A stretch of DNA of 64,000 nucleotides from Candidatus Woesearchaeota archaeon (GTDB taxonomy: Archaea; Nanobdellota; Nanobdellia; Woesearchaeales; UBA12501). The DNA lies in the NCBI GenBank assembly GCA_030651375.1, contig JAUSFM010000009.1, forward strand, positions 65,345 through 129,344. The letters run 5' to 3'. The position numbers and the translations under genes are program-made. Shown here piece by piece: positions 24,641 to 60,345 of the stretch (positions are counted from its first letter, which is position 1; every line of letters begins with the position of its first letter). Under the pieces are notes generated by a model. That model was not told where the DNA came from, ran no database searches, and saw nothing but the letters and a program-made list of their open reading frames with translations.

Positions 24641-24750
24641 CTTCCCTTTCAACATAAAAAATATAAAAAATTCATAAAAATTCATTCTTGAGTACTAACA
24701 AACCTTTTTATATCAATCTGCCTGTGTACTACTCACAAGGGGGTTGATTG

Positions 24751-26832
24751 ATGGCGAATAAGCATTTTCAGCGCATGGACAAAGTTCTTGGCCTCCCGCC
24801 TGCGCCGCATGGTGCACCTGCCAAAGAAAAAAATGCCAGCCATCACCATCCCGAACATACCTCTCCTGCTTCACCTACTGCAACGCATAGGCATGGTTTT
24901 CTCGCGCGATTCAAAAAGCACCCATCGCATCCCTCTATTCAAAACGCTCCTGCCGGTGCTTATCCGAGTGACTTCGCACAACAGGAGCGCGCTGACGTTG
25001 ACGAGCTGAAAAAGCACCAGATTGAGCTCGATCACCTCGCACTTCAACAGCAGGCCAGAGAACAAGCTCGAGAAGAGCAAGAGCCTACCGGCGCGGAAAA
25101 ATATCTTCTCAAGGAAAAAGAAAAACTGCTCAAAGAGCGGTTCACGCTTGAAGGCGACATTGTTGCGCTCACGAAACGTCGCGCCCAGCTTGTTGGCCAG
25201 ATGCGAGTCGGCATCACTGAAGAAGAAAAAAAAGCCCGAACAAAAATTGAAAGCTCCCTGCGCGGCCTCGCGAACGAGCGCGAACGGCTCCTCACCGTGG
25301 TCAAAAATCTCAAGCCGCAGGCTGATGAGCTCCGCCGGCAGATGTCACCTAGTTTTTTCACCATCGAAAAGCATGAAAAAGAACTCGCAGCGCGCGAAGA
25401 AAAAATATCGCTTGCTGACGCACGATTGAAAAAAATCAGCGATGAGCTCCGCCACCATGAATTTGAGCTCGGAAAAAAACAGGCAGGCCTTGCCCATGAA
25501 GAGCGCGAGCTCACTGAACAGCAGCGCGCGCTCAAGGAACGGCTTGCACAGGAAAGCCAGCGCGTTGCGCTCATGCTCGCGGAAAAAGAAGCGCTGCTCA
25601 AAAACAAGTACAAAATATGGGAGCAACAGATTGACCGGCGCGAGCACGCAATCGCCGGTGCCGAGCGAAACTTCAACAAGGAAAAAGGAAAACTCTACCT
25701 TGAATTTGAAAAAGAGCACGAAAAACTCGGCCACAGCCTCGAAGAAGAGCGCACCAAGCTCTACGGCGACTTGCAGCAGCAGAAAGACCATCTCAGCCGG
25801 GATCTCGTCGATCTGGAAACCAAAAAGCGACAGCTTGAGCAGGCAGTGCTCGAGAAAAAAGAGACCATTCACGATATCGCTGAAACTGAACGCCTGCTCA
25901 ATGAAAAAGAAGAGCATCTGCTCAACAAAATCCGGATGCTTGAGACGGACGAGCATCGCCTCCACTCTCGCGAGAATGAGATTATCGGCAAAATCAAACA
26001 GCTCGAGAGCGACCAGCAGCTGCTCGATGACAAGGAAAACGAGCTCATTGACGTGCTGAAAAAACTGGATATGCGTGAAGGCGAGCTGCGTAATCATGAG
26101 CGTATGCTGAATGTCAAGGGCAACGAACTCACGGCTCGGGAGCATGACATCCAGAAAAAAATGGACGAGGCACAAGAAAAGCTTGACGCCATCAAAACGA
26201 ATAATTCACTCAAGCTGAACACCGCCGAGCTCGAAAAGGCCGCCACTAAAATCGTCGGTGAAATTGAATCTCTCGCACACAAAAAAGAATCTCTCATCAA
26301 ACAGCAAACACTCCAGCACGACATTGAGGCGCTGCAAAAATCAAAAAAACTCATTGCAGCCGAACTTGAAAAAGAGCGGGGCGCGCTCGAGCAGGAGATC
26401 AACAAGCTCGTTGCCAAAGTTGCTGACATGGAACAGGTCTTTGTCGCTGACGACCGGCTCAAGCAGCGCCAGGACTTCATGGAACGGAAAGAAGATGCGC
26501 TTGAGCAGGAGCATGCCCACATTCAGGAGCAGCTCAACCAGCTTGAAACCAACAGCATAAACGCGGTTGCAGCATTGTCATCAGTTCAGCAGCAGAAAAA
26601 TACTGCAAAAGAGATTTTCGAGGCCGACTCGCGCGAAAAAGTTGAGATCTACGCAATGATTGAGCAGGCGCGCGACGCCATTGTCGCCGGCACCTTCGAT
26701 CTTGCCAAGCAAATCTACGCGGCGATTCAGGAAGCGTACAAAACATTCAACCTTGCTGAAGCAGACCGCCGGAAAATTTACTTTGATGTGGTTGAGCTCA
26801 AGACGGACATTGAGCTCGGCGCGCTCTGCTGA
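24751..26832 (+). CDS. Long coiled-coil protein
   Basis: About 550 aa of E/K/L/Q-rich heptad-like sequence with a His/Pro-rich N-terminus; no Walker motifs. Confidence 0.8.
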   Translation: MANKHFQRMDKVLGLPPAPHGAPAKEKNASHHHPEHTSPASPTATHRHGFLARFKKHPSHPSIQNAPAGAYPSDFAQQERADVDELKKHQIELDHLALQQQAREQAREEQEPTGAEKYLLKEKEKLLKERFTLEGDIVALTKRRAQLVGQMRVGITEEEKKARTKIESSLRGLANERERLLTVVKNLKPQADELRRQMSPSFFTIEKHEKELAAREEKISLADARLKKISDELRHHEFELGKKQAGLAHEERELTEQQRALKERLAQESQRVALMLAEKEALLKNKYKIWEQQIDRREHAIAGAERNFNKEKGKLYLEFEKEHEKLGHSLEEERTKLYGDLQQQKDHLSRDLVDLETKKRQLEQAVLEKKETIHDIAETERLLNEKEEHLLNKIRMLETDEHRLHSRENEIIGKIKQLESDQQLLDDKENELIDVLKKLDMREGELRNHERMLNVKGNELTAREHDIQKKMDEAQEKLDAIKTNNSLKLNTAELEKAATKIVGEIESLAHKKESLIKQQTLQHDIEALQKSKKLIAAELEKERGALEQEINKLVAKVADMEQVFVADDRLKQRQDFMERKEDALEQEHAHIQEQLNQLETNSINAVAALSSVQQQKNTAKEIFEADSREKVEIYAMIEQARDAIVAGTFDLAKQIYAAIQEAYKTFNLAEADRRKIYFDVVELKTDIELGALC

Positions 26833-26896
26833 TTTTTGTGTTTTTTTGTGCTCATTTTTCTTGTTGTACGCTCTATTGTCTCGATGTACATTCATC

Positions 26897-26952
26897 ATTT
26901 TGTTTTCTCGTTTTGTTTCTCGTTTTGTTTCTTGTTTTGTTTCTTGTTTTCT
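26897..26952 (+). repeat. 12-bp tandem repeat GTTTTGTTTCT(C/T) upstream of the parA-like gene
   Basis: Full units at 26910-26921, 26922-26933 and 26934-26945 with degenerate flanking copies. Confidence 0.8.
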
Positions 26953-27052
26953 ACAATCAAAATATTTATAAACCAGTGGCGAGTGTGATGTGTTGAAACC
27001 TGTATACACTTAAAAGAGAAAAAGAAAAAATCAGCCAAAAAGAGGGGATAGC

Positions 27053-27862
27053 ATGAGAAAAATCTGCATTATTAACCAAAAAGGCGGCGTGGCAAAAACA
27101 ACCACCGCTGTAAACCTCGGCGTTGGTCTTGCCAAGGAAGGAAAAAAAGTTCTCATTATCGACCTTGATGCGCAAGGAAACGTCGGCACCTGCCTGCCAG
27201 CAGAGTCAAAAAAAGACCTGTACGACTTTCTGGTTGAAAACGCCGACATCCGCGAGTGCATCTCCGGCGTCACCGAAAATCTCGACCTTATCAAAAGCAG
27301 GGAAACACTGGCAAAAGCCGAGCTCATTCTCGTGGGCGAAAGCTCCCGTGAAATGACACTTCGGAGAAAACTGCAAAACCTTGCAGGCTATGATTACGTG
27401 CTGCTTGACTGCCCGCCGAGCCTCGGCCTGCTGAACCAGAACGCCATGCTGTTTGCAACCGAAGCGCTTATTCCGGCATCCACCGACATTCTCGGGATTG
27501 ATGCGCTGCGAAAAATGCGCTTTATTGTTGACAAAATCAATGACGTGTTCGGCCACAGCCTGACCATCAGCAAGGTGGTTCCCACGCTCTACGATGTACG
27601 CAATAAAGTGTGCAATACCGTGCTGAAACAAATGCAGAGCGAGTTCTACGAGCTGGTCTCTGACCCGATTCGTGTCAATGCAACGCTCAAAGAGGCGCCG
27701 GCAGAGAAGAAGTCAATCTTCGACTACGCCCCAAACTCGCGCGGTGCTGAAGACTACCGCAAGCTCGTCAAGCAAGTATTGCGCGACGAGGAGAAATACG
27801 TCAAACTTGCGCGCTCTCCCGCGTCAATGCGGATGCAAGTGAAAGAAGCGGTTATTGGATAA
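27053..27862 (+). CDS. ParA/Soj family ATPase
   Basis: Deviant Walker A KGGVAKTTT, IDLDAQGN, DCPPSLG and IRVNATLKEAP motifs; GAGGGG RBS. Confidence 0.92.
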   Translation: MRKICIINQKGGVAKTTTAVNLGVGLAKEGKKVLIIDLDAQGNVGTCLPAESKKDLYDFLVENADIRECISGVTENLDLIKSRETLAKAELILVGESSREMTLRRKLQNLAGYDYVLLDCPPSLGLLNQNAMLFATEALIPASTDILGIDALRKMRFIVDKINDVFGHSLTISKVVPTLYDVRNKVCNTVLKQMQSEFYELVSDPIRVNATLKEAPAEKKSIFDYAPNSRGAEDYRKLVKQVLRDEEKYVKLARSPASMRMQVKEAVIG

Positions 27863-28473: not shown

Positions 28474-29826
28474 CTATTTCTGGTACAAATCAGGATATTC
28501 TTTAACAAGCGCTTGGCGCATTTTTTCCTTGGCGCGGTTTTCGAGCTGCCTCGTTCGCTCACGGGTGATGCCCAACTGGTCTCCAATTGCCTCGAGTGTC
28601 ATTGGCTCTTCGCGGAGCAGGTGGCAGTCAACAATATATTTTTCGCGTTCGTCCAGTACATGAAGTACCCCGCGAATTGCCTGATTGGCAAATGGGGCGT
28701 TGGGAGTAATCATCTCTTCCGGGGTTGGAGCATTTGACGCAACCCTTGAATATAAATTCTTGTCGTCAGCTGTTAGGCTGTCAAGAGACGCATCACCATC
28801 TGCCAAGCGCTGCTGCATGCCTCTTACTGACTTTGGCGAAACGTTAAAGTGTGCAGCAATCTCTTCAGGTGTTGCTTCATGGTCTTCATATAATAATTCA
28901 GGCATACGGCTTGTTCCTACTTTTGGCAGCAGATAATATAATTTTCTTTGCACTTGGCTTGTTCCTATCTTCACCATTCTTCTGTTCGCTATGTTGTCAG
29001 CATAGATTTGTGCTTTTATCCAATGCACGGCATAGGTGATAAAATTCTTGCCTTTTTTAGGGTCATATTTCCGCGCGGCGCTCATGGCGCCCAAATAGCC
29101 ACTGCTCACTGATTCATCCCATGCTTGTTTGTTCGTACGAGGGTGTATGCCCATCTGATGTACGACCTGATAGACAAAGTGTACTGATGACTCAACCAGG
29201 CGCTTAACCGCTTCTTTTCCCTCTTCACTGTCCGGGCCGTACGCTTGTACCGTGTGGCCCCATTCATACTGTTGCTCTTTTAATGCCTGTCTATCTTCCA
29301 AAGGTAGTTTTTGTGCACGTTGAGGCATTGGTTTTTTCAATTTCTTAACCGGAAGCCGGACAATCTCTGCTTCCGGCGGCGTTTCATAAGGTGTCCTGTC
29401 AAATGCGGTCGTGATGAAACGTTCGAGAATAAAATCAAGTGAACTGACAGACACATGCTCATTTCGTACCTCAATCTCCCCTTTTTCTTTCAGATAGTGG
29501 AGTCTCTCTCTCACATTTGTCTCTTCGAGCTTCACGCCACCAATTTTTTGGAGTACGAGATCATCAAGCGGAATTTCAGTTGCAAAGTGTTCTGCTTTTG
29601 ATGGGTCTTCTGCAATCATCTGTGCGACAATTGAGCCGACAAAATAATAGGGCTCTTGAGAAAAAGAATACAGGGGAAATGCTCGGTCTGCATAGCGTTG
29701 GAGGCCAAGAGCAATAACTGTTTCTGTTGACATGGTATCAAGAAGTGGAAGTGCTTGCAGCTCTTTACGTAGATGAGGGGGAAGTTCGCTTGAACCCTGC
29801 TTTAAAAAAGGGAGCACCGTTGCCAT
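28474..29826 (-). CDS. RNA polymerase sigma-70 family factor (RpoH/sigma-32-like) fused to an unknown N-terminal domain
   Basis: Region 2 GYLGAMSAARKYDPKKGKNFITYAVHWIKAQI; RpoH-box-like VKIGTSQVQRKLYY; region 3 EEIAAHFNVS...DASLD; region 4 LDEREKYIV...TLEAIGDQLGITRERTRQLE. Confidence 0.9.
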   Translation of the reverse strand: MATVLPFLKQGSSELPPHLRKELQALPLLDTMSTETVIALGLQRYADRAFPLYSFSQEPYYFVGSIVAQMIAEDPSKAEHFATEIPLDDLVLQKIGGVKLEETNVRERLHYLKEKGEIEVRNEHVSVSSLDFILERFITTAFDRTPYETPPEAEIVRLPVKKLKKPMPQRAQKLPLEDRQALKEQQYEWGHTVQAYGPDSEEGKEAVKRLVESSVHFVYQVVHQMGIHPRTNKQAWDESVSSGYLGAMSAARKYDPKKGKNFITYAVHWIKAQIYADNIANRRMVKIGTSQVQRKLYYLLPKVGTSRMPELLYEDHEATPEEIAAHFNVSPKSVRGMQQRLADGDASLDSLTADDKNLYSRVASNAPTPEEMITPNAPFANQAIRGVLHVLDEREKYIVDCHLLREEPMTLEAIGDQLGITRERTRQLENRAKEKMRQALVKEYPDLYQK

Positions 29827-29849
29827 AAAGTTCTTGTGTGGTGTTTATT

Positions 29850-29860
29850 ATTTTAAAAAG
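29850..29860 (-). promoter_or_regulatory. Archaeal TATA-like box for the RpoH-like gene
   Basis: Minus strand CTTTTTAAAAT, about 30 nt before the ATG at 29826; same spacing as housekeeping genes in this window. Confidence 0.6.
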
Positions 29861-29894: not shown

Positions 29895-31193
29895 TTATTC
29901 AAAATCATCAGGATTCAAACAACGGCGAAGATTTACTAAGGCTGCCGAATGGAGTTGGCTGGCGCGAGATTCAGTGAAACCCAAAATGCGGCCGATCTCT
30001 TTTAAATTTAAATCTTCTTTGTAATACAATCTTAGAAAAATTCTCATATTTTGTTGTGTTTCCGGCCTACAGGGAACTCCTTCTGCAGTTGAAAAGGTAA
30101 TGCTATCCAACGCGCCCCACAGCATTGATTCTTCTTGGCGTAGCGCTGCCATCGTGTCAAGATAGACACTTTTTTCATCAGGTACTACTCGGGGAACATC
30201 AATATATTTTCCATTTTTATCTTTAGGCTTATCATCCAAACTCATAACCCTTGGTGCGCTCACTTGTGCTTCGTCATATTGTTCTTGTGTAATGCCGGCA
30301 CGCTCAAGAATCTGTTCGAGTGGAATATCCGTTGTTCCTGTTTCAAACAGCAATGCAGCGCGCGCATCTTCCACATCCTTGAGCCGTTCACGCACGCTGC
30401 GAGAAACCCCATCAAGGTGGCGTAAATAATCCAATATCGTGCCGCGGATGCGCATTTCTGCATACGGCCTGAAACCACCTTGTTTTGCATCAAATTTTTT
30501 TTTGGCGTCCAAAAGGCCGAGGTATCCTTCACTGATTAAATCATCAACCTCAACGCTGCGCGGCAAGCGTTGAGCAATGCGATATGCTAAACGTTTTACC
30601 AGCGGCATATACTCCGTCGCAAACGCTTCTTCTTCGCCATCGCGTATCTCTCTCCTTTTTTTCTCTTTTGTTTCTCTTGTTTCTTTCTTCGGCATTCCCA
30701 CTACTTTTTTTTCATATTCAACCGGCAGCCCATACGTTGCATACAGCACATCCCACAAGACAGCATTAACCAACTGCAGGGGAACATTCCCTTCCGGAAG
30801 AATGCCGGCTTCTGTCAGATACGCAAGCCGTTCGTCGACGGTGTTTTTGTTTAGTCCAACTCCTCCCAACTGGGTGACGGTAAATTCGCTGTGCGGTATG
30901 CCTGCGAGTGTATCGCCAGCTTGTTTTCGTAGCTCCGGATATTCCTGCAGTGCCGCAGCAATGACTGACGCGACAAAATACGTTGGCTCGCCGGAAAAAG
31001 AATACAGCGGAAAGCTTTTGTCGACTATTCTTTCCGGCGTGCCGCGCTGGAGCAATTCGGCTCTGGAATATGCCCTGAACATTCCTCCGACAGCGAGCTG
31101 ATACGCCGTTGCTGTCATAAATGTTTCTGCGAGCTGCTCCAGACTTCTATCTTGCTGCGGTGCAGGAAAGGGGAGAACGGTTGCGGCGGACAT
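29895..31193 (-). CDS. RNA polymerase sigma-70 family factor (FliA/WhiG/sigma-28-like) fused to an unknown N-terminal domain
   Basis: YMPLVKRLAYRIAQRLPRSVEVDDLISEGYLGLLDAKKKFD...YAEMRIRGTILDYLR...SRSVR; region 4 LYYKEDLNLKEIGRILGFTESRASQLH. Confidence 0.92.
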   Translation of the reverse strand: MSAATVLPFPAPQQDRSLEQLAETFMTATAYQLAVGGMFRAYSRAELLQRGTPERIVDKSFPLYSFSGEPTYFVASVIAAALQEYPELRKQAGDTLAGIPHSEFTVTQLGGVGLNKNTVDERLAYLTEAGILPEGNVPLQLVNAVLWDVLYATYGLPVEYEKKVVGMPKKETRETKEKKRREIRDGEEEAFATEYMPLVKRLAYRIAQRLPRSVEVDDLISEGYLGLLDAKKKFDAKQGGFRPYAEMRIRGTILDYLRHLDGVSRSVRERLKDVEDARAALLFETGTTDIPLEQILERAGITQEQYDEAQVSAPRVMSLDDKPKDKNGKYIDVPRVVPDEKSVYLDTMAALRQEESMLWGALDSITFSTAEGVPCRPETQQNMRIFLRLYYKEDLNLKEIGRILGFTESRASQLHSAALVNLRRCLNPDDFE

Positions 31194-31205
31194 GGCATCA
31201 CTCGT

Positions 31206-33026
31206 TTATTTTTCTAACTCAAAGAGCACTTCTTTCGGTGCAACCAGTTCTTTATCAGGTACGATTTCTCGGTCAAATGTAGAGTCTAACGCTTCTGATA
31301 CGGAATGTAATGGTGCAAAGCCTCCCGGCGATTGTTCTTCTTCCTTCTCGTCATCGCCCAAGAAGTCAATGTCCTCAATGGATCCATACGTTTTGTCTGT
31401 TTCAGAAACTATTTCTGGCCTACGCCCTGTTCTTTCTTTTGGCCTATACTGCTCATCACGTTCCCGATAGAATCTTCCAATGGGAGTTTCAGTATCCGCG
31501 CACTGCATTTCCTCAACGTGATACCCATGTTTCAGCATTGCAATGACTCCTGCTTCCAAATCCTCCCGCGTTATCAGCTCACCACTTTTTTTCGGTTGTA
31601 GGTATGCTGGTTTTTTTCCGGTGACTGCACCCAATCTATCAGTAATATCCTGCTCCGGCACGAGCGTGTACTTGGGCAACCGGTCAACCAACTCGCGCGA
31701 AACATACGGCATTCTTCTGACACCATACGATTCTTCATATTCCCGCACGAGATTCAATGCCAGTGCCGCCGGCAAAATTCTCATTTCATCAAGGTCAGGA
31801 AGGGGAATCTCACACACTTCCTGTACTCGCCGAGGATCAAAATATTCAACGCCATTAAATTCTATCGGCCTGCACCCGATATACAGCTCTGACAGCATTT
31901 TTCCGATATTTCTGCCGTGCATATCAAAGCGAGATTTTGCCGCACGATACATAAGATAGCTTGCCACTTCCTGCCCCGTTATCGGATAAAATGTTTCAAG
32001 TACTTGTCGGTATGCCTCAATAAAGTCTTTCTTTTTCAGTGTTCCGGCACTGCCTCCCATGGTTCGTAACCCACCATATCTTTTCAACAATTTCTGCATG
32101 CCATAGTTAGGAAAGCCGGGGTCAATGGAGTATTTTAATGCCGTCATGACCTCAAGGGTTTGGGTGTACGTTAATTGTTTCGGTGCCTCAGCAAGTATCT
32201 GTTTTGATGTTTTTCCTCCTTCGTCCAATTCTTTTTCAAACTCCTCTAACTCTTCAGGTGTCATCTCTGCAAGTTCGTGTTCAAATTCCCTGACAAGATT
32301 TACGCCATAACTTTTATGTTTTAATGTGTTGGGTGAACTCGTTGCTCCTATGTGATGATTTGTCGCTGGTTTTTTACGCTTGTACAGAGATTTATCAGGA
32401 ATGTCTTGTTTTAATTTTTTAAGCGCGCGTTCCAAGCTTCGTGACGGCGTGCCAAAGTCACGCGTGCGCAAAGTGACTTTTCTTTGTATGATAAAGGCAT
32501 CGTCACTATTCCCTGTTTCTTCTTCTCCTTCTGGTTTTCGGTATGCTTCAATGGGCATAATATCCGCAGCCGGATGCTCGCTTTCATAGGCTGGTGGATT
32601 TCCAAATGTCATTGCAATGAAATCTCGGAGTACAAAATCTATGGTGCTTATCGAGACATTTTGGTTAGGAAGCATTGCAATCACACCATTTTCTCTCAAA
32701 TAGTCAAGCCTCTCTCTCTCATTTGCCTCTTCCAGCCGCACACCGCCAATATTCTGCAGCACGAGACGTTCCAGTGGAATTTCAGTTGAAAATAAGGGTG
32801 CCTGTGCAGGATCGTCCACCAGTATCTGCGCAACAATGGAGCCGACAAAATATTCTGGCTCTTGAGAAAAAGAATGCAGTGGAAATGCGCGCTCTGCATA
32901 GCGTTGCAGCCCAAGACTTTGCACTGTTTCTTGTGACAGCCGGTCAAGGAGACTAAATTCTTGCAGCTCTCGTAGAGTGCGCGGAGAAATTTCTTCAGGT
33001 TTGCTGAATTGAAGAACATCGGCCAT
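31206..33026 (-). CDS. Hypothetical protein sharing the N-terminal domain of the two sigma fusions
   Basis: LGLQRYAERAFPLHSFSQEPEYFVGSIVAQ matches LGLQRYADRAFPLYSFSQEPYYFVGSIVAQ of 28474-29826; GGTGA RBS before ATG 33026. Confidence 0.8.
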   Translation of the reverse strand: MADVLQFSKPEEISPRTLRELQEFSLLDRLSQETVQSLGLQRYAERAFPLHSFSQEPEYFVGSIVAQILVDDPAQAPLFSTEIPLERLVLQNIGGVRLEEANERERLDYLRENGVIAMLPNQNVSISTIDFVLRDFIAMTFGNPPAYESEHPAADIMPIEAYRKPEGEEETGNSDDAFIIQRKVTLRTRDFGTPSRSLERALKKLKQDIPDKSLYKRKKPATNHHIGATSSPNTLKHKSYGVNLVREFEHELAEMTPEELEEFEKELDEGGKTSKQILAEAPKQLTYTQTLEVMTALKYSIDPGFPNYGMQKLLKRYGGLRTMGGSAGTLKKKDFIEAYRQVLETFYPITGQEVASYLMYRAAKSRFDMHGRNIGKMLSELYIGCRPIEFNGVEYFDPRRVQEVCEIPLPDLDEMRILPAALALNLVREYEESYGVRRMPYVSRELVDRLPKYTLVPEQDITDRLGAVTGKKPAYLQPKKSGELITREDLEAGVIAMLKHGYHVEEMQCADTETPIGRFYRERDEQYRPKERTGRRPEIVSETDKTYGSIEDIDFLGDDEKEEEQSPGGFAPLHSVSEALDSTFDREIVPDKELVAPKEVLFELEK

Positions 33027-33059
33027 GCCTTTCACCGTTATTTTCTTCTTTTAAAAATA

Positions 33060-36000
33060 TTACTCAAGCAATCTCGGCGCCATGGCTTCAACATCGTTGA
33101 CATGCGCCAATCCGAAAAGCGTTTTTCCTGCCTTTCGCAGTTGAGTTTCAAGTGCATGATATCCTGCATCAGCAGGGACACCGTGTTGTGTCAGCACCTT
33201 CATGGTTTGGTTCTCATCAAGGAATCCAACCTGTTTCATCAATTCTGCCCGCGAATCATCGTAATGCATTGCCTGCGCCCATCCTGCTGCCAGCTTCCAA
33301 TATGCTTTTGAAAATACGTCATACCCTATGAGTTGTTGATCGCCCAACTTTTCCGTTGCCATATACTCCCGGATGTATTTTTCCAACTGTAGGTCTGGTT
33401 TTTCTCCATCAAGCAACAGCGCAGGCATGATGCGGTTCACAGGAATTTTTGTTCCATCCGATTTTTTCCATGAAAACGGCTCATACAAAATCGCCGCTGC
33501 AACAAAAGGAGAAACATGATACCCTTCTCCAGTCACTGCTTTTCGCATAGTGTCAGGGAATTGGCGTATGGCCGCGTTGATGCGCCCGGGTGTTACTTGC
33601 GGAGGCATCAATTCAGCAAGATCAGAGGTGAGCACAATATCTTCAACGCCGTAGGCGTGCTCTGCGTCATTGCCTTTCAGGACAATCTGGTCGGCTGCAA
33701 ATCTGCCTGATCTTCTCATGTACTCAAAGAGCCGCCGTGAAAATTCCGGCTGATATGCGGCCACAAGCAACGCGACGGCTTCTTCTTCATTCTTCGGTGC
33801 AGTGCTCAGGCGATACTGGTACACACCATCTTCGGCGCGCGGTGTTATTCGTGCGCCGAGAGAGCCGGATCTTCGTTCTGGCTGTACTAACACCGGTGTT
33901 TCTTCTCTTTTTGAAGGTGTTGTTCCTGCGGGAGCTGGTGCAGTATATCCTGTTGTTTCTGCCGCCGATGCTGGTGCAAGTGGTGCCTGTTCTCCTGCAG
34001 GCGATGCAACCTTTTCTTCCAGCGAGGGTATCACCACTTTTGTTCCCTTGGGAAGCCCGACAACATCTTCAACCGTTGTGCGTCCCGTCAATGATTCCAA
34101 TGCATAATCAAACGCTTTGAAATAGACTTCACGTTGGCGCGCCTTGATGTCTGATGCCGTTGGAGTGCCTGATTCAGGCGTAAAAAGATTTGTTTTTGAA
34201 TACACCTGTAGAAGTTCTGGGCCAAGAATAGCGTACAGTGCCGCATGGTTTGGCGGTGCTAATGGCTCTGGCTTAAGGTCAACTTCTGCCCATAATTTAA
34301 TTTTCAATGCCGTGCTTGCGGCGATGCCTAATCCTGATGCTTTTAATCTATGGGTATTGACAAACTCGTGCAGTTTTCCAACAGCTTTTTTCGTGACTTG
34401 AGCTGCAACAACATATTCCACAACCATGTTTGGCACATACAAATGTTGGTCATCAAATCGTATCCGGCGCTGTGCTGTATTATAGTATCCTTTCTCCAGA
34501 ATTTTATGCCGTAACGCCGTTGCGAGGTACGCCATTGCGTATGTGTCGTCGAATGGATGGGTTGATGATGAAGTGGCAGGAGCGGGAACTTCTGGGCGTG
34601 CTGAAGCTGGTGAAGCAGGAGCAGGAACCGAAACAAGTACGTCATCAATTGATGCAGCTATTGGTGTTGGCGCAGGAGCTGGCGATGGTGCCGGAGGAGG
34701 AACTGGTATTGGTGAGAGAGCTGGAGATGGCGCAGGGGCAGGTCGAGTGGCTGGAGAATCTACATTCGCGGATTCTGCCGCAACATAGTCACCCAACAAT
34801 GTGCCGCCTGCTTTCATCGTGTCGAAGGCGAGGTTGAATGATTCACGGAATCGCTGGCGGACAGGCGTGGCTGGTTTAGCGAATTTTTCAACAGCGGCAA
34901 AGTATTTTTGTCCTTGTAATCTTTGGATGGCTTCAAATGGCACACCAAAAAATCCAGCTATTTCTACATCCAAATATTTCTTTACATCTGTAAGATCACT
35001 CAGATGGATGGCAAGAATATCCTCCATCATTACTCCTGCAGGTGCATCATGATGATGGCGCAGCAATGGATGCTCTTTTCCTTTCCATTGTTGAAACGCC
35101 CCATCGGTTATTCTGGTTTTTAATAGTTCACGAACTTTGTAATACCGGGGAACATCCCCACTTTTAATCGGCTTGTGGCCGGGAAGCGTAATCATATCTG
35201 TCGTCGGATCATACAGCTTTTGATAGCGTATTCCCCTTTCTATTCCCTGCGCAAGATAGCGGAGTGGGTCGGTGAGAAGTAAATCATCGGACAGAACGAA
35301 TTTTCTTCCGGCAGATGCTGCTGAAGCGGCAGGATGTGGTGGTGCGGGCGCATCCGGTGCATCCGGTTCAACCACCGTATCAATCGTTGCGGCACGAGCT
35401 GCTATTCTCTGCTCTTCTGCTTCTGATGGTGCTTCACCAGCCACTGCGCCGCCGGTAAGCTCTTGATACCATACTGACTGGTGCTCCCGCACAATCGGAA
35501 ACAGTTGAGGAAGGAGATTATTGATGCTTGGCCAGTCAAGGTCAACGGTCTTTGCTTTTTTCAGTAAACCATCTTCCACTGCGCGATGTGCAAGGGCAGA
35601 ATCAATGCCGAGAGATGCTTCCAAATCAGCGTAGGTTCTGATGCGAACATCGCCCGCTGATTTGTAAAGCCCAAAGAATTTGACATCAAGGGGAGAGAAT
35701 TTTTGATGGAGGGAAAAGGGAACATGGCCAAAAGCGTCTGCATAGACTTCGTTAACATAGCGTTGGTATGACGTATAGCGAGCGTTATATCCATCGCTTC
35801 CTTCTCGTGCTTGGTGTGGGGTTACTGCAAGCAAAGGAATATCGGCAGGGGATGATGGGGTCAGTGTTTGGCTGTGCGCAACAAGTTGTTGGTGCTCGGC
35901 ATCGTAGCCAAGCATAATTCCTTCAGCAGTGTACTGGCCGGTTTGCACGAGGTGGCTAAACACAGCCTGCGCAAGTTCTTCGAGCAGGGGACGTGAAGGA

Positions 36001-37169
36001 ACAGAACGGGGAGAGGGAGGTGGAGCAGGAGTTACAGGAGCTGGTTCAACCGCTGGTACAGATTCAGGCACGCGTGGCGCTGGTTCAGCCACGCGTGGTG
36101 GCACTTGTTCTGGTGTTTCACTTTCATATTCTTTTACCGCCTTTTCCAATGCTGTGTCAAACACTTCAAAAAATACTTTTTCCTGCGCGGTTTTAAACCG
36201 GCTTGCATCTCTTGGCTTGTATTCGTGTTTCGGATTAAATACACCTGAATTATGTGCGTTGATTATTTCATCTTCAGAAGCACCAAATAAATCTGCAAGT
36301 TCATCGAGTGATAACGATTGTGTTGGTGTTTTACCAGGAGCACTTTCGCGCCATAATTTTACTTTGAGCACGTTTCGAGCTTCTGCACCGTCGTCTTTTC
36401 GTAATCCTTTACTATCCATATACTTGTGTGCTGTTCCACCTGTTGTAAATCCTGCTAAACTTTTTGCAATGCCATATCCAACAATATGGTCCGAATCATA
36501 TCTTATTCCTTCTGCAAATTTTATTTGTTTTCGTTCACCGTCATAATAGTCTTTGCGTATTCGTTCGTATAACCGTTCGACAAGAATGTCCTGCATATCT
36601 TCAGCTGTTGTATCTTTTGGCGGCGTCGGTTCTTTGTGAAGGGGTGCCGGTGCAATTGGTTCAGGTTCACGTTCACGAATAGGCGCTGGCACCGGTACAA
36701 CTATCTCGGGTGGTGCTGCCCTAGCCGGAGCTGCTGAAGCTGCTGCACGCTCCTCTCGTTCCGCCAAACGATTTCGTGTGCGTTCTGCCAGAGAATCCGT
36801 GCTCAATTCAATAACTTCAATCTGGCGATCGGATTGTTGAACATACGTGAGAAACAACGGTTGAGAAGAATCGCGCGCTTCAACATAGTGTGCTGCCTCT
36901 GAAAAAACACCGAGCGGAATGCCATTTGCTGCAACACCGACATCTTTTCCAACTGATTTTACTTCAATGGCAGTTCGTGAGATGAAACCATCAAGGCCGA
37001 CGATGCCGGTCGATCCGTGGTATGTTTTGTCAGGTGTTCCGTGCAGTTGAATTTCGAGTGGCCTGCCAAGTAAGGCAGCAGTAACTTCGTCAATGGTTGT
37101 TGTGGCACTCGTTGCAGAATCAAGCGGTATAATGCCTGCCCTTCCTACCTTAAACCAGTGTTCAGCCAT
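33060..37169 (-). CDS. Large (1369 aa) multidomain protein with diverged internal repeats and Pro/Ala linkers
   Basis: Uninterrupted 4.1-kb ORF with repeated blocks (e.g. LKVKLWRE / LKIKLWAE and VFFEVFDTALE / VYFKAFDYALE) separated by PAPAP-type linkers. Confidence 0.8.
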   Translation of the reverse strand: MAEHWFKVGRAGIIPLDSATSATTTIDEVTAALLGRPLEIQLHGTPDKTYHGSTGIVGLDGFISRTAIEVKSVGKDVGVAANGIPLGVFSEAAHYVEARDSSQPLFLTYVQQSDRQIEVIELSTDSLAERTRNRLAEREERAAASAAPARAAPPEIVVPVPAPIREREPEPIAPAPLHKEPTPPKDTTAEDMQDILVERLYERIRKDYYDGERKQIKFAEGIRYDSDHIVGYGIAKSLAGFTTGGTAHKYMDSKGLRKDDGAEARNVLKVKLWRESAPGKTPTQSLSLDELADLFGASEDEIINAHNSGVFNPKHEYKPRDASRFKTAQEKVFFEVFDTALEKAVKEYESETPEQVPPRVAEPAPRVPESVPAVEPAPVTPAPPPSPRSVPSRPLLEELAQAVFSHLVQTGQYTAEGIMLGYDAEHQQLVAHSQTLTPSSPADIPLLAVTPHQAREGSDGYNARYTSYQRYVNEVYADAFGHVPFSLHQKFSPLDVKFFGLYKSAGDVRIRTYADLEASLGIDSALAHRAVEDGLLKKAKTVDLDWPSINNLLPQLFPIVREHQSVWYQELTGGAVAGEAPSEAEEQRIAARAATIDTVVEPDAPDAPAPPHPAASAASAGRKFVLSDDLLLTDPLRYLAQGIERGIRYQKLYDPTTDMITLPGHKPIKSGDVPRYYKVRELLKTRITDGAFQQWKGKEHPLLRHHHDAPAGVMMEDILAIHLSDLTDVKKYLDVEIAGFFGVPFEAIQRLQGQKYFAAVEKFAKPATPVRQRFRESFNLAFDTMKAGGTLLGDYVAAESANVDSPATRPAPAPSPALSPIPVPPPAPSPAPAPTPIAASIDDVLVSVPAPASPASARPEVPAPATSSSTHPFDDTYAMAYLATALRHKILEKGYYNTAQRRIRFDDQHLYVPNMVVEYVVAAQVTKKAVGKLHEFVNTHRLKASGLGIAASTALKIKLWAEVDLKPEPLAPPNHAALYAILGPELLQVYSKTNLFTPESGTPTASDIKARQREVYFKAFDYALESLTGRTTVEDVVGLPKGTKVVIPSLEEKVASPAGEQAPLAPASAAETTGYTAPAPAGTTPSKREETPVLVQPERRSGSLGARITPRAEDGVYQYRLSTAPKNEEEAVALLVAAYQPEFSRRLFEYMRRSGRFAADQIVLKGNDAEHAYGVEDIVLTSDLAELMPPQVTPGRINAAIRQFPDTMRKAVTGEGYHVSPFVAAAILYEPFSWKKSDGTKIPVNRIMPALLLDGEKPDLQLEKYIREYMATEKLGDQQLIGYDVFSKAYWKLAAGWAQAMHYDDSRAELMKQVGFLDENQTMKVLTQHGVPADAGYHALETQLRKAGKTLFGLAHVNDVEAMAPRLLE

Positions 37170-53990: not shown

Positions 53991-55025
53991 TTACATTCTC
54001 GGCTGCTGCTGGCTCATGCAGTGAATCGTGCCAAAGCCGAACACGACGTGGTAGCAGTTGATGCCGACTACTTTTCGCTGCGGGAATTGTTCCTGAATAA
54101 TCCTCAGCGCTTTCTCATCATTCTTGTGCCCAAAAATAGGCACGAGCACAACCGTATTGCCGATGTAGAAATTCGCATAGCTTGCCGGCACCCTTCCTTT
54201 GTCATCGCCCACCACACCGGGCATGGGCAGTTTGATGACCGTAAGTTTTTTCCCATCCTGATCCGTTTCTTTGCATAGAATGTCATAATTTTCTTTCAGC
54301 ATCGGATAATTTTCATCGTTGGCATCATCTTCATACGCGCATAGCACTGTTGTGGGGTTTACAAACCGCGCAAGGTCATCAACGTGGCCATCGGTGTCAT
54401 CACCCACAATGCCTTCATTGAGCCAGATAATTTTTTTGACGCCCAAAAAATCCTTCAGATACTGCTCAATCTGCTGTTTTGAAAGCTGTGGATTCCTATT
54501 TTTGTTAAGCAGGCACTGTGCCGAGGTCAGCAGCGTTCCCTTACCGTTGACATCGATTGAGCCGCCTTCGAGCACAATGCCGGGCGCGAACCGCTCAATC
54601 TTCATTGTTTCGTTAATCCATTCGGGAATGTGAGAATCTTTGAGCAGTTCTTCGTACTTGTTGCCCCACGCGTTGAAAATCCAGTGCGTCATGGCGAGCT
54701 TTTTTTCTTTTTTATTCACCACAAAGATTGGGCCGTAGTCACGAAACCAGACATCGGCATACTCATGGACATGGAGCGTTATTTTTGAGAAATTGCATTT
54801 TTTCTTTTCAAGCGCCGCCATCACTTTTTTCTTCATCGCTTCATTTTTGACGAGTAAATTCACCTGTTCACTGGAATGAACTGCTGCAATAATCTCTGCC
54901 ATGGCCTTTTCTGCCTCCGGCATATTCGGAAACGTAAGTGGGTCATGCGGCCACGAGAGCCAGATAGCATCGTGCGGTTCCCATTCTGCGGGCATCTGAT
55001 AACCGAGCTGAGAAGGCGTTTTCAT
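53991..55025 (-). CDS. aguA: Agmatine deiminase
   Basis: MPAEWEPH, WFRDYGP, LEGGSID, DDTDGHVD and GTIHCMSQQ motifs; start taken at MKTPSQ. Confidence 0.93.
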   Translation of the reverse strand: MKTPSQLGYQMPAEWEPHDAIWLSWPHDPLTFPNMPEAEKAMAEIIAAVHSSEQVNLLVKNEAMKKKVMAALEKKKCNFSKITLHVHEYADVWFRDYGPIFVVNKKEKKLAMTHWIFNAWGNKYEELLKDSHIPEWINETMKIERFAPGIVLEGGSIDVNGKGTLLTSAQCLLNKNRNPQLSKQQIEQYLKDFLGVKKIIWLNEGIVGDDTDGHVDDLARFVNPTTVLCAYEDDANDENYPMLKENYDILCKETDQDGKKLTVIKLPMPGVVGDDKGRVPASYANFYIGNTVVLVPIFGHKNDEKALRIIQEQFPQRKVVGINCYHVVFGFGTIHCMSQQQPRM

Positions 55026-55029
55026 TGTC

Positions 55030-55875
55030 TCACTTTTTACACAAACGTCCATACGTTTCCGGCCGGCGGTTGCGCATGAATCCCCATGCGTCGCGGATGT
55101 CCTTGTTTTTGCTGGTATCAACATCAACAATCAGAATTTCTTCCTTGTCGCCGGCGCGCTGAATCACATTGCCAAATGCGTCGCATACAAATGAGCCGCC
55201 CCAGAAATGCAGTTCATTTTCTTCGCCAACACGGTTGACCGCAGCGACAATGACACTGTTTGCAATGGCGTGGCTGCGCTGGATGGTTTCCCACGCATCG
55301 TGCCACTCACCCTCATGTGCTTCATGGTTTTTGATAGTGCCGATTGCCGTGGGGTAGAAAATAATTTCAGCGCCGTTGAGCGCGCATACCCGTGCCGCTT
55401 CAGGAAACCACTGGTCGTAACATATCAGGACAGAAAAGGTGGCATACTTTGTTTTGTAAACAATATACTCGTCGCTACTTTCCTTGAAATAGTCCTTTTC
55501 ATAAAACAGCGGGTCGTGGGGGATGTGGTGCTTGCGGTAGGTGTCGAGCTGTTTTCCGTCGGCGTCAAACACCAGCGCAGAATTGTACTCTGTTTTTCCT
55601 TTTTTTTCATAGAATGGCACAACAAGCACCACTTTTAATTCATCTGCAAGCGCAGAAAACCGTTCACTGAACTGGTTTGGAATGGATTCAGCCAGCGCCG
55701 AAAAATCTTTTTTTTGTTCGCGCGGAAAATAGCGCGTCGCGAACAGTTCCTGCAGGCAGATGATTTTGGCACCTTTCTTCGCTGCAGCCCTAATTTTTTC
55801 AATAGTTTTCTGTATGTTTTCGGGCTTGCTTTCACCGGCAGCACTTTGAATGAGGCCAATGGTTACGTTGGTCAT
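55030..55875 (-). CDS. aguB: N-carbamoylputrescine amidase (CN hydrolase family)
   Basis: LQELF, YRKHHIP, FYEKDYF and ICYDQWFPE motifs; directly upstream of aguA. Confidence 0.88.
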   Translation of the reverse strand: MTNVTIGLIQSAAGESKPENIQKTIEKIRAAAKKGAKIICLQELFATRYFPREQKKDFSALAESIPNQFSERFSALADELKVVLVVPFYEKKGKTEYNSALVFDADGKQLDTYRKHHIPHDPLFYEKDYFKESSDEYIVYKTKYATFSVLICYDQWFPEAARVCALNGAEIIFYPTAIGTIKNHEAHEGEWHDAWETIQRSHAIANSVIVAAVNRVGEENELHFWGGSFVCDAFGNVIQRAGDKEEILIVDVDTSKNKDIRDAWGFMRNRRPETYGRLCKK

Positions 55876-58112: not shown

Positions 58113-59327
58113 ATGGCACGAAAATACCTTTTCACCAGCGAAAGTGTCAGCGAAGGACACCCGGACAAACTCTGCGACCAGATTTCAGACGCGATTCTCG
58201 ACGCCATCCTCGCCAAGGATCCCAACGGCCGCGTCGCGGTTGAGTGCCTCGTCAAGACCGGCTTTGTCGTTGTCGCCGGCGAAGTGACCACGACCGCGTA
58301 TGTTGATATTCAAAGCATTGTGCGCAGCGTCATCTGCGAAGCAGGCTACGACCGCCATGATTTGGGATTTGAAGGCCAGACGTGCGGTGTTCTTGTCGCG
58401 CTTTCAGAACAATCACCTGACATCGCGCAGGGCGTTGATGAGCGTTCTGCAACGGGAAAAGAAACTGCCGAACAAGGCGCCGGCGACCAAGGATTAATGT
58501 TTGGCTATGCCACTAATGAAACCCCTGAATTCATGCCGCTGCCCATTAGCACCGCGCACAAGCTTCTCTTAAAACTGCGCGACCTTCGCAAAACACATGT
58601 GCTTCCGTACCTTCGGCCTGACGCAAAAAGCCAAGTCACGGTTGAGTATGACGGTGGAAAACCCGTGCGTATTCACACCGTTGTTTTGTCCGCTCACCAT
58701 TCGCCTGATGTTACGCACGCGCAGATAAAAAAAGACCTCATCGAACACGTCATCAAGCCGGTGTGCGGAAACTACCTCGACGATTCAACCATCTATCACG
58801 TTAATCCAACCGGAAAATTTGTGGTCGGCGGGCCGGTTGCCGACGCAGGCCTTACCGGCAGAAAAATAATTGTTGACACCTATGGCGGCCACGGTAGCCA
58901 CGGCGGCGGCGCATTTTCCGGAAAGGACCCCAGTAAAGTTGACCGGTCCGGGGCATACGCCGCGCGCTACATTGCAAAAAACATTGTCGCCGCGGGACTC
59001 GCCGACAAATGCGAAGTCCAGCTTGCGTACGCCATCGGCGTTGCCGCTCCTGTTTCCATTTTGGTCAACTGCTTTGGCACCAACAGGGTTTCGGAAGAGA
59101 AACTTTCTGAACTGGTGAGAACCCACTTTCCCATCAAGCCCGCTGACATTATTTCTCATTTGAAACTCCGCAGGCCCATTTTCAGAAAAACAGCAAGCTA
59201 CGGCCACTTTGGCAGGGACGACCCTGATTTCACGTGGGAAAAACTGGACAAGGTTGACGCGCTGAAACAGGACGCGGGGCCGCTGCATGCTCCTGAACAT
59301 ACAGGGAAAGATGTGGCGCTGGATTGA
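58113..59327 (+). CDS. metK: S-adenosylmethionine synthetase (bacterial/eukaryotic type)
   Basis: [35 protein letters not shown] and GGGAFSGKD motifs. Confidence 0.96.
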
Positions 59328-59337
59328 ATTGGTTGAT

Positions 59338-60345
59338 ATGGCTGCTCTTCGTAATTCTAACAAGAATCTTAACTCAAACAAAGCTACGGGAAGGAAAATA
59401 GTCTGGTTCTTGGGGGCAGGAGCTTCTCGAGGTGCTGGTGCCGCACTGCGGGTCGGCGGGTCGGGAGGTACAATTAAAATTCCAATTCAAGCCGACTTTT
59501 GGGACGTTGTTCTAAGGTATGGATCTAAAAAGGATGCTGACAAAATACAATCTTTTTTATTTAGATATTTTGCAGGTTATGATAGGACACCTGCGCGTAG
59601 TAATCGAAAAGAACGAAGAGAAGTATTGAAAAATATTGATGTCGAAGAAGTTTTTACTTTTTTGAGTGAGAGAATCAAAACCAAGCAAATTCCTGACTCT
59701 TTAAAAACTTATTTTACGGAAATTCAGTCAAAACTAATACGCACGGTGACAAAAACCCTTCGTAAATTCGAACCAAATGCCCAAACTAAGAAAACCTATG
59801 CCACCTTCTCTAAAAATCTTCTGCGAACAAGAGACGCTGTTGTATCTTTTAATTACGATACTATCTTCGAATATTCTTTGCCAAAAAACAAACCCTTCTT
59901 TTATCAGGATGTTTCGAAAAAAACTAAATTTTATGCTGTTTTCAAGCCGCATGGTTCTATAAACTGGAAGATGGGGGAAAACAAAAAACTTGAAGTTGAC
60001 GATTATGTTGACGAACCCGAACTAATCCCTCCAACACATCTAAAATTTATCGGAGAACAAATTGACCCAATAAAACTGCTTTGGAAAAAAATGGAAATTC
60101 AAATGCAAGCAGCCAAAACTTTTGTTTTTATAGGTTATTCATTTCCTGATGCTGATTTCTACTTTTCTTCTGTTATGCGATCTGTTTTAACAAAAACTAA
60201 AAGAAATGTTAAAATAATCCTTGTTGACCCCGATGCTCAGCGATTGTCAGAAAAGTTTGGTAAACGTTTCTCAATAACTCAAAACAGGATTCTAAAATAT
60301 TTTGATTTATCACAACTTCTTCAAATTAAGCGTAAGACATTATAG
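59338..60345 (+). CDS. SIR2-like (SIR2_2) domain protein
   Basis: FLGAGAS, SFNYD, KPHGSINW and FIGYSFPDAD motifs; AT-rich DNA. Confidence 0.85.
   Translation: MAALRNSNKNLNSNKATGRKIVWFLGAGASRGAGAALRVGGSGGTIKIPIQADFWDVVLRYGSKKDADKIQSFLFRYFAGYDRTPARSNRKERREVLKNIDVEEVFTFLSERIKTKQIPDSLKTYFTEIQSKLIRTVTKTLRKFEPNAQTKKTYATFSKNLLRTRDAVVSFNYDTIFEYSLPKNKPFFYQDVSKKTKFYAVFKPHGSINWKMGENKKLEVDDYVDEPELIPPTHLKFIGEQIDPIKLLWKKMEIQMQAAKTFVFIGYSFPDADFYFSSVMRSVLTKTKRNVKIILVDPDAQRLSEKFGKRFSITQNRILKYFDLSQLLQIKRKTL

Follow-up and report, generated by a model that had tools for sequence, protein, structure and literature searches.

A leader domain shared by bacterial-type transcription initiation factors is fused to a FliA-like sigma in a woesearchaeal genome

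We analysed a 64,000-nt stretch of DNA (hereafter the window) from a Candidatus Woesearchaeota archaeon (contig JAUSFM010000009.1, positions 65,345 to 129,344; genome G000) and found that a minus-strand gene at 29895..31193 joins an N-terminal leader domain to a FliA-like sigma factor with domains sigma2-sigma3-sigma4. The product has 432 amino acids (aa), was identified from open reading frame (ORF) translation, NCBIfam and AlphaFold2 (mean pLDDT 82.7) and is referred to below as the fusion; labels beginning with L, P and G denote contigs, proteins and genomes. The new element is the leader; a sigma-28 as such has precedents among DPANN archaea. The best reading of the fusion, which we favour tentatively and at somewhat less than an even chance, is that of a FlgM-insensitive sigma cargo that acts on the RNA polymerase (RNAP) of a bacterial host.

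Using a profile of seven leaders against 1.84 billion representative sequences, we recovered 25 proteins and retained 24; P0106 was dropped as a repeat-like match over 36 positions. Three of the 24 are fragments, and in 17 of the 21 non-fragments the cargo is a bacterial initiation factor: eight are FliA-like (including the truncated P0003, assigned by eye), five ECF, two RpoH-like, one RpoD-like and one a sigma-54 activator (P0087, the same as L020) with an intact GAFTGA loop. The others carry the uncharacterised region of a 609-aa protein encoded next to the fusion (n = 3) or another uncharacterised region (n = 1). The leader is C-terminal in P0087 and P0103 and is therefore a movable module. 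That one leader sits on five classes of factor needing a bacterial holoenzyme speaks for our reading. It was present in 5 of the 17 genomes of the family. No description of such a shared module was found in the literature searched, although subscription papers and unopened supplements may contain one.

In the fusion, the leader covers residues ~12-162 (30708..31160, minus strand, as are all features of the fusion given below), has an alpha/beta fold based on alignments and a predicted structure (pLDDT 91.6, pTM 0.86) and is net acidic (11 K+R versus 18 D+E). It is preceded by the motif VLPF (residues 6-9, 31167..31178), a pattern typical of the leader family. Counting strict matches within the first 14 residues, this pattern, which was defined after inspecting the family, occurs in 12 of 26 family sequences versus 2 of 1061 other ORFs of G000 (5 of 1064 when its three family members are included). 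The idea that this motif and a hydrophobic motif after the leader might be ClpX-adaptor tags gained no direct support from the literature searched, and no ClpX zinc domain scored over cut-off in the 17 family genomes. A homodimer prediction for the leader scored 0.29 against a mark of 0.42, which speaks neither for nor against dimerization, and an internal repeat between the two lobes of the leader was not supported (hhalign probability 0.8%).

The window gene has a close counterpart on an independent metagenome contig, L152. Comparison of the two indicates that the leader is under purifying selection, with a ratio of nonsynonymous to synonymous substitution (dN/dS) of 0.13 at dS 0.39 and a whole-gene dN/dS of 0.27; this answers in part a check proposed in an earlier note on this DNA, the sigma part being uninformative at 1-3 synonymous changes per segment. 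In the sigma2-sigma3 part dS is only 0.02-0.03, so the gene looks mosaic between strains. Alongside this uneven dS, the region-3.2 linker is replaced (window 29895-31193 versus L152:155-1441), which suggests module swapping between strains.

The FliA-like half occupies residues 187-428, behind an N-terminal extension of ~165 aa. The earlier note had recognized a FliA-like domain, which is real, but had placed the gene at 29895..30700; these limits cut the ORF and missed the extension. The six near-consensus FliA motifs it listed all fall in one minus-strand frame, at residues 197-203, 209-227, 244-258, 264-268, 367-382 and 389-415. The sigma2, sigma3 and sigma4 domains are all present, with FliA the closest among sigma models. 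Scores fell below the family cut-offs for TIGR02479 FliA_WhiG (E 2.9e-49, 167.8 bits; cut-off 189.6) and PRK06986 (163.7 bits; cut-off 201), and exceeded them for the Pfam models Sigma70_r2 (PF04542, E 3.8e-15; sigma region 2 at 30417..30617) and Sigma70_r4 (PF04545, E 2.7e-9; sigma region 4 at 29925..30044). The best sequence matches in the PDB were FliA chains, and sigma folds ranked first in the structure search.

Contacts were mapped from Pseudomonas aeruginosa sigma-28 structures (accessible portion of PMC12784957) and an Escherichia coli complex (accessible portion of bioRxiv 10.1101/2020.01.02.893370). Thirteen promoter contacts are identical in the fusion (R40, K64, D66, Y76, R80, R82, L86, D87, R90, D93, R97, S224 and Q228, P. 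aeruginosa numbering), as are the equivalents of E. coli K208 and R220. At H100, R101 and R104 it has whichever residue is most frequent among the 72 bacterial FliAs nearest to it; S72 and I79 are altered. Region 2 keeps its -10 recognition, melting and core-docking residues, and region 4 its -35 recognition residues. Within region 2.2, where sigma-70 numbers were placed by pattern, the equivalents of D403, E407, G408 and G411 are present and those of Q406 and N409 changed; D403, G408 and G411 are retained in all seven leader-FliAs. Across these seven proteins, 16 DNA-contact columns were conserved in 85% of cells versus 59% at 74 other conserved columns (p 0.0006), in a test that left out the near copies P0002 and L017, used bacterial controls picked by similarity to the query and compared kin that are not independent. 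By cut-off and cellular context the fusion is not a FliA family member, yet residue mapping indicates that its DNA face is built like that of FliA.

The FlgM-binding surface has fared differently. In the fusion R40, R82, R90, L204, Y206 and L210 are kept and P96, L200 and A203 changed, the last two in the FlgM groove of region 4, and seven FlgM-only columns were the least conserved class among the leader-FliAs (41% of cells; p 0.07). A small residue at A203 is found in 72/72 bacterial and 0/11 archaeal FliA-likes. Also lost are E88 and W94; the latter is present in 72/72 of the nearest bacterial FliAs and in 80/80 FliA loci among the matches listed (almost all proteobacterial), versus 0/11 archaeal FliA-likes. 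The earlier note had proposed selection to act with a bacterial RNAP or with FlgM. The former agrees with promoter-contact and region-2.2 residues being kept above other conserved columns; the latter is not supported by the pattern just described. The same data bear on whether the protein is a decoy that titrates a host's anti-sigma factor FlgM: six of the FlgM-contacting residues would serve it, but P96, L200 and A203 would not, and the DNA contacts, useless to a decoy, are the best-kept class. With promoter contacts kept and FlgM contacts tending to be lost, we therefore regard a decoy role as very unlikely.

The earlier note had also drawn attention to a short insertion before region 4 that might alter FlgM binding. 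An extra segment exists (residues 367-382, 30048..30095; net ~10 extra residues, pLDDT < 50 at 366-375), and the span from R97 to Y206 is 125 residues in the fusion versus 98-117 (median 112) in the 72 bacterial FliAs. Its position is ambiguous, because the first helix of region 4.1 is matched by residues 358-365; the insert may therefore interrupt region 4.1 instead of preceding region 4. Since the segment is found in the window gene and the 89%-identical P0002 and not in other leader-FliAs, it is private to one lineage, and a special role for it is unsupported.

The transcription machinery of the archaeon itself does not fit a sigma. According to the accessible text of PMC8321222, E. coli forms holoenzyme less well when beta' is substituted at R275, E295 or A302. 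RpoA' of G000 has I, L and H at these positions, that is, 0/3 sigma-docking residues; the two helices of this clamp coiled-coil read alike in G000 and G008. In 654 upstream regions of G000, TATA-like motifs numbered 377 versus 177 expected. The sigma-28 pattern was not enriched in them (12 versus 8.2 +/- 2.2 expected), and sigma-70, -32, -54 and ECF patterns were at or near expectation, the highest being relaxed sigma-70 (156 versus 140 +/- 8). Genome-wide there were 12 sigma-28-like sites, 11 of them inside called ORFs. A genome-wide excess of the sigma-28 -10 octamer (118 versus 63 expected) was rejected as a promoter signal; it is a codon effect, because 79 of the 118 are antisense in one frame. 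Putative TATA-like boxes lie ~25-30 nt before the starts of the sigma genes, and we infer that these genes may be transcribed from archaeal TATA promoters. No match to FlgM was found in the genome, and a scan of 42 window ORFs hit neither che nor flagellar families, as the earlier note had said of flgM and che genes in the neighbourhood; its view of an organism without a bacterial flagellar regulon holds for an archaeal genome that has neither bacterial RNAP nor FlgM. Own RNAP and promoters thus do not fit a sigma, which makes action with a bacterial RNAP the leading idea.

These observations weigh against a different role for the leader, as an adaptor that tethers bacterial initiation factors to archaeal RNAP, TBP or TFB for hybrid initiation. 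Such a module could serve many initiation factors, as this one does, and in G000, G001 and G008 sigma genes come directly before the RNAP operon. However, the clamp lacks all three docking residues, the promoters are of TATA type, and G007 offers the sigma-54 activator that it encodes as cargo no cognate target. We consider hybrid initiation quite improbable.

A repurposed DNA-binding regulator inside the archaeon is the main rival and stays close behind our favoured reading, although we think it less likely than not. Here the sigma domains would read DNA without a polymerase, and the leader would bind DNA or a partner such as the 1369-aa neighbour described below. This reading does without an export route, no class of residues is kept better than the DNA contacts, and sigmas in the family are often fused to helix-turn-helix (HTH) units (L001, L019, P0101). 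The leader had zero matches to Pfam, NCBIfam, PHROGs or PDB sequences, and neither PDB sequence search, Foldseek (PDB and viral) nor VIA-align gave a clear fold (best structural Z 5.2), which does not in itself prove a new one. Both lobes show a background-level resemblance to excisionase/MerR HTH domains (Z 3.1-4.3, Foldseek E > 0.1), a weak hint in favour of DNA binding. Set against this are the leader's net acidic charge, the want of sigma-28-type enrichment upstream of G000 genes, and the retention of melting and core-docking residues and of the GAFTGA loop of the activator cargo, features for which a plain repressor has no use. It would also leave unexplained why only bacterial initiation factors were repeatedly captured.

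The gene is archaeal by context. G000 is 1.30 Mb, 100% complete with 0.91% contamination, and encodes TBP; a bacterial RpoC model matched only the split archaeal subunits, under cut-off, and there is no bacterial RpoC. The locus sits on a 195-kb contig with archaeal markers around it, and in the window EF-1beta, RNA cyclase, NMD3 and diphthamide genes flank it on both sides. Leader proteins with a named source are archaeal in 4/4 cases (P0085, P0087 and P0098 from Woesearchaeota, P0101 from Nanoarchaeia); for the 16 other representatives looked up, archaeal origin is assumed. Misassembly, contamination or decay after gene transfer might be suggested by the long branch in a quick tree, by a GC3 of 0.43 versus a genome median of 0.52, or by one 211-aa fragment in the P0099 cluster that was deposited as Bdellovibrionales on a 1.2-kb contig. 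We read the last as probable mis-binning because its sister gene, L017, precedes an archaeal RNAP operon. Given the flanking markers, the genome quality, the same gene order on L152, the leader dN/dS and the named archaeal sources, an artefact or decaying gene is already largely refuted and we give it next to no credence.

In the quick tree, a clade (SH-aLRT 95) united seven archaeal FliAs, namely the one of the window, five further proteins with a full leader and gap-broken L017. It lay inside a group (SH-aLRT 95) of 25 bacterial FliAs, of which three bear the name Bdellovibrionota or Bdellovibrionales; leader-bearing P0103 fell within that group and outside the archaeal clade. The closest bacterial clade, which the earlier note had wanted identified, is thereby tentatively narrowed to Bdellovibrionota-named and unnamed FliAs, in a tree with long branches and narrow sampling that held no named Desulfobacterota, Myxococcota, Firmicutes or spirochaete FliA. 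The nearest bacterial FliAs reach up to ~47% identity. A scan for the nearest FliA in named genomes does not identify the donor; the matches listed were gamma- and beta-proteobacteria.

Sigma factors of bacterial type recur in the order. Sigma region-2 matches occurred in 118 of 301 order genomes and 10 of 17 family genomes, and FliA-type matches above 130 bits in 3 of 301; among the order genomes counted are five flagged as unpublished (G198, G128, G259, G147 and G137), and no leader or window-gene claim rests on them. G000 itself has four sigmas, FliA-, RpoH-, RpoD- and ECF-like. Its RpoD-like protein (740 aa, L001:8781-11003, G000:C16) has well-kept regions 1.2-4, an uncharacterised N-terminal part and a C-terminal XRE-like HTH. 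Sigma-like genes repeatedly neighbour hisS and/or immediately precede the archaeal RNAP operon, at L025:10149-12117, L018:13970-16091, L017:14550-15674 and L024:1129-4258 (G000, G001 and G008). A second type of FliA fusion, with a different N-terminal extension, was seen in other families of the order (L162:1456-2715 in G256, L164:1474-2706 in G286); likeness of these extensions to the leader, suspected by eye, was rejected with scores within shuffled controls. The protein beside L162 has many Fis-like HTH repeats, seen by eye.

Other parts of bacterial initiation occur in relatives as well, which we count in favour of action on a bacterial host. Sigma-54 activators of the AAA+ type, with GAFTGA and a Fis-type HTH and without an N-terminal regulatory domain, are encoded at L021:14761-17067 (G001) and L020:2258-3967 (G007), two genomes in which no sigma-54 was matched (90% and 94% complete, respectively). 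A 310-aa RpoN-like gene with a region-I-like start, a DNA-binding end and a shortened middle stands among archaeal genes in G013 (L146:3131-4063); a sigma-54 match in G151 was discarded, its contig looking bacterial by eye. Proteins at L157:1462-2592 (G001) and L158:185-1312 (G006) end in a sigma region-4-like unit fused to an RNAP alphaCTD. Sigma region 4 and the alpha C-terminal domain are both promoter-contacting parts of the bacterial holoenzyme.

Peptidoglycan enzymes were taken as possible signs of a bacterial partner. G000 encodes a 792-aa class A penicillin-binding protein (PBP)-like transglycosylase-transpeptidase (Transgly E 3e-38; PBP1A family E 4e-76, below cut-off). Its gene points away from that of an SLT protein with a twin-arginine-like start, and uncharacterised genes follow (L149:7184-14424, G000:C16 ~117180-124420). 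G001 has a transglycosylase frame of equal length, and of three SLT-domain proteins in G000 two have twin-arginine-like starts, by eye. Among the 301 order genomes, sigma-positive ones made up 14/23 of those with a transglycosylase and 104/278 of the others (Fisher p 0.043).

On our favoured reading, the fusion would act within the cells of a bacterial host, binding the RNAP there and redirecting or blocking sigma-28 promoters, while likely escaping FlgM. This presupposes a bacterial host into which the protein passes, and leader and N-terminal motif would be the common handle that a chaperone, a carrier or an export route recognises. The earlier note suggested modulation of host motility; a motility-specific purpose is doubtful because the leader also carries RpoH-, RpoD-, ECF- and sigma-54-activator cargo. 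With the RpoH-, RpoD- and ECF-like sigmas of G000, the fusion would rather form a kit for taking over host transcription. A more specific version, which we think possible but unlikely, has a woesearchaeal lineage that parasitises bacteria and delivers a leader-tagged kit (FlgM-insensitive sigma-28, RpoH-, RpoD- and ECF-like sigmas and a sigma-54 activator), with the leader as tag and the Bdellovibrionota-like FliA ancestry as a pointer to the host.

Several points weigh against host-directed action, and delivery is its weak link. A folded domain of 150 aa would be atypical for tagging a protein for export, and no signal peptide can be seen. Searching two secretion families, we identified no delivery machine, only one T2SSE/pilus ATPase and no TraG/VirB4-type PF19044 match. 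Two of the 301 order genomes have the leader, each a member of this family, so that nearly all sigmas of the order are without it, and the RpoD-like and ECF sigmas of G000 had none on sequence comparison. The excisionase/MerR-type fold hints, weak as they are, would suit DNA binding within the archaeon. Any cell that has no FlgM would be expected to lose the FlgM contacts, whose loss by itself falls short of significance (p 0.07), and folding may be what preserves the region-2.2 residues. The promoter counts used textbook consensus patterns (the sigma-28 one also appears in PMC12784957) and a crude ORF caller, and the association with transglycosylases ignores kinship. Bacterial hosts of Woesearchaeota have been proposed or inferred, not shown, in the accessible text of three articles (PMC8204110, PMC9723730, PMC12352652), and in the literature searched no woesearchaeon has a demonstrated one; Castelle 2021 and Vigneron 2022 go no further than inference. 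A variant without export keeps the fusion in the archaeal cytoplasm, where it would sense, bind or express bacterial DNA or polymerase taken up from a partner. It draws on the same residue and promoter evidence, but no evidence of uptake was found and importing a large polymerase is as unsupported as exporting a sigma; we consider it improbable.

The fusion belongs to an array of leader genes. Directly downstream, at 28474..29826 on the minus strand, is a second sigma that the earlier note's picture of the locus lacked: a 450-aa protein with the same extension and an RpoH-like sigma (TIGR02392 E 1.7e-42, under cut-off), preceded by a putative TATA-like element 21-33 nt upstream (29847..29859). 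Its reading frame is shifted near an AG run at L153:1094-1650 and open on L152, which may reflect assembly error or slippage. Upstream on the same strand (31206..33035) is the 609-aa gene, a leader, 56% identical to that of the RpoH-like protein, followed by an uncharacterised C-terminal region with relatives in P0088 and P0095. The protein had zero matches to Pfam, NCBIfam or PHROG models, and the ESM Atlas gave no usable match for the leader or for residues 270-540 of this protein. A putative TATA-like element lies upstream of it (33049..33057; ATG at 33026). It is probably co-transcribed with the fusion because only 12 nt separate them, a gap that contains a Shine-Dalgarno-like hexamer (31198..31203) after the upstream stop codon. 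L152 has all three leader genes in identical order. Next upstream is the 1369-aa gene (33060..37169, minus strand), which has no leader; its relatives adjoin sigma or leader genes in G007 and G008.

Elsewhere in the window, a ParA/MinD-family ATPase lies 2 kb from the locus on the opposite strand (27053-27862), following a 694-aa coiled-coil protein (24748-27862 for the pair); a similar-looking long protein starts at L146:10451. A peptidyl-arginine deiminase and CN-hydrolase pair is at 53991-55875, and a SIR2-like protein follows a SAM synthetase gene at 59287-60345.

Why DPANN archaea keep bacterial sigmas, and whether any have bacterial hosts, are questions that have stood since 2021. A single module on five kinds of bacterial initiation factor is a common handle that makes host-directed and in-cell use testable. 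Host-directed use would mean cross-domain transcriptional manipulation by a cellular archaeon, with a clue to host identity, and a delivered kit would amount to archaeon-to-bacterium protein effectors; otherwise, bacterial promoter readers would have been rebuilt as archaeal regulators.

A close precedent is the family of sigma-70 genes (fam00359) that Castelle et al. 2021 (PMC8204110) reported as prevalent in Woesearchaeota, with mis-binning excluded, no anti-sigmas and the mechanism left open, according to its accessible text. Like these, the fusion is a bacterial-type sigma-70 gene in a Woesearchaeota-like genome with no FlgM found, and its sigma-70 domain sits on a true DPANN contig. The accessible description of fam00359 names no subtype, leader, tandem array or cross-class module, although Supplementary Table 3 may list this protein. 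Two preprints, on a myxobacterial virus and on complete Nanobdellota genomes, contain nothing on archaeal sigmas in their accessible parts. With bacterial FliA/sigma-28 (TIGR02479; P. aeruginosa 9WSF/9WSM, E. coli 6PMI) the fusion shares the sigma2-sigma3-sigma4 fold and nearly all -10/-35 contacts, and it differs in the leader, the lost W94, P96 and E88, the altered FlgM groove, the extra segment near region 4.1, a score below the family cut-off and a cell without FlgM or bacterial core. The predicted leader lobes have a strand-helix-helix-wing-helix order similar to that of excisionase/MerR winged HTH domains (CarA N-domain 2jml, GIsul2 Xis 8c3t, TorI 1z4h; Z 3.1-4.3), but unlike them the leader is net acidic, and it matches them at background-level scores and without sequence similarity. 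Phage-encoded sigma factors alter host sporulation (Schwartz et al. 2022, PMC9429907, accessible text); they are expressed inside the host, whereas the archaeal protein would need cross-domain delivery. In our working model the two would be alike in that a parasite carries host-like alternative sigmas able to act on the host polymerase.

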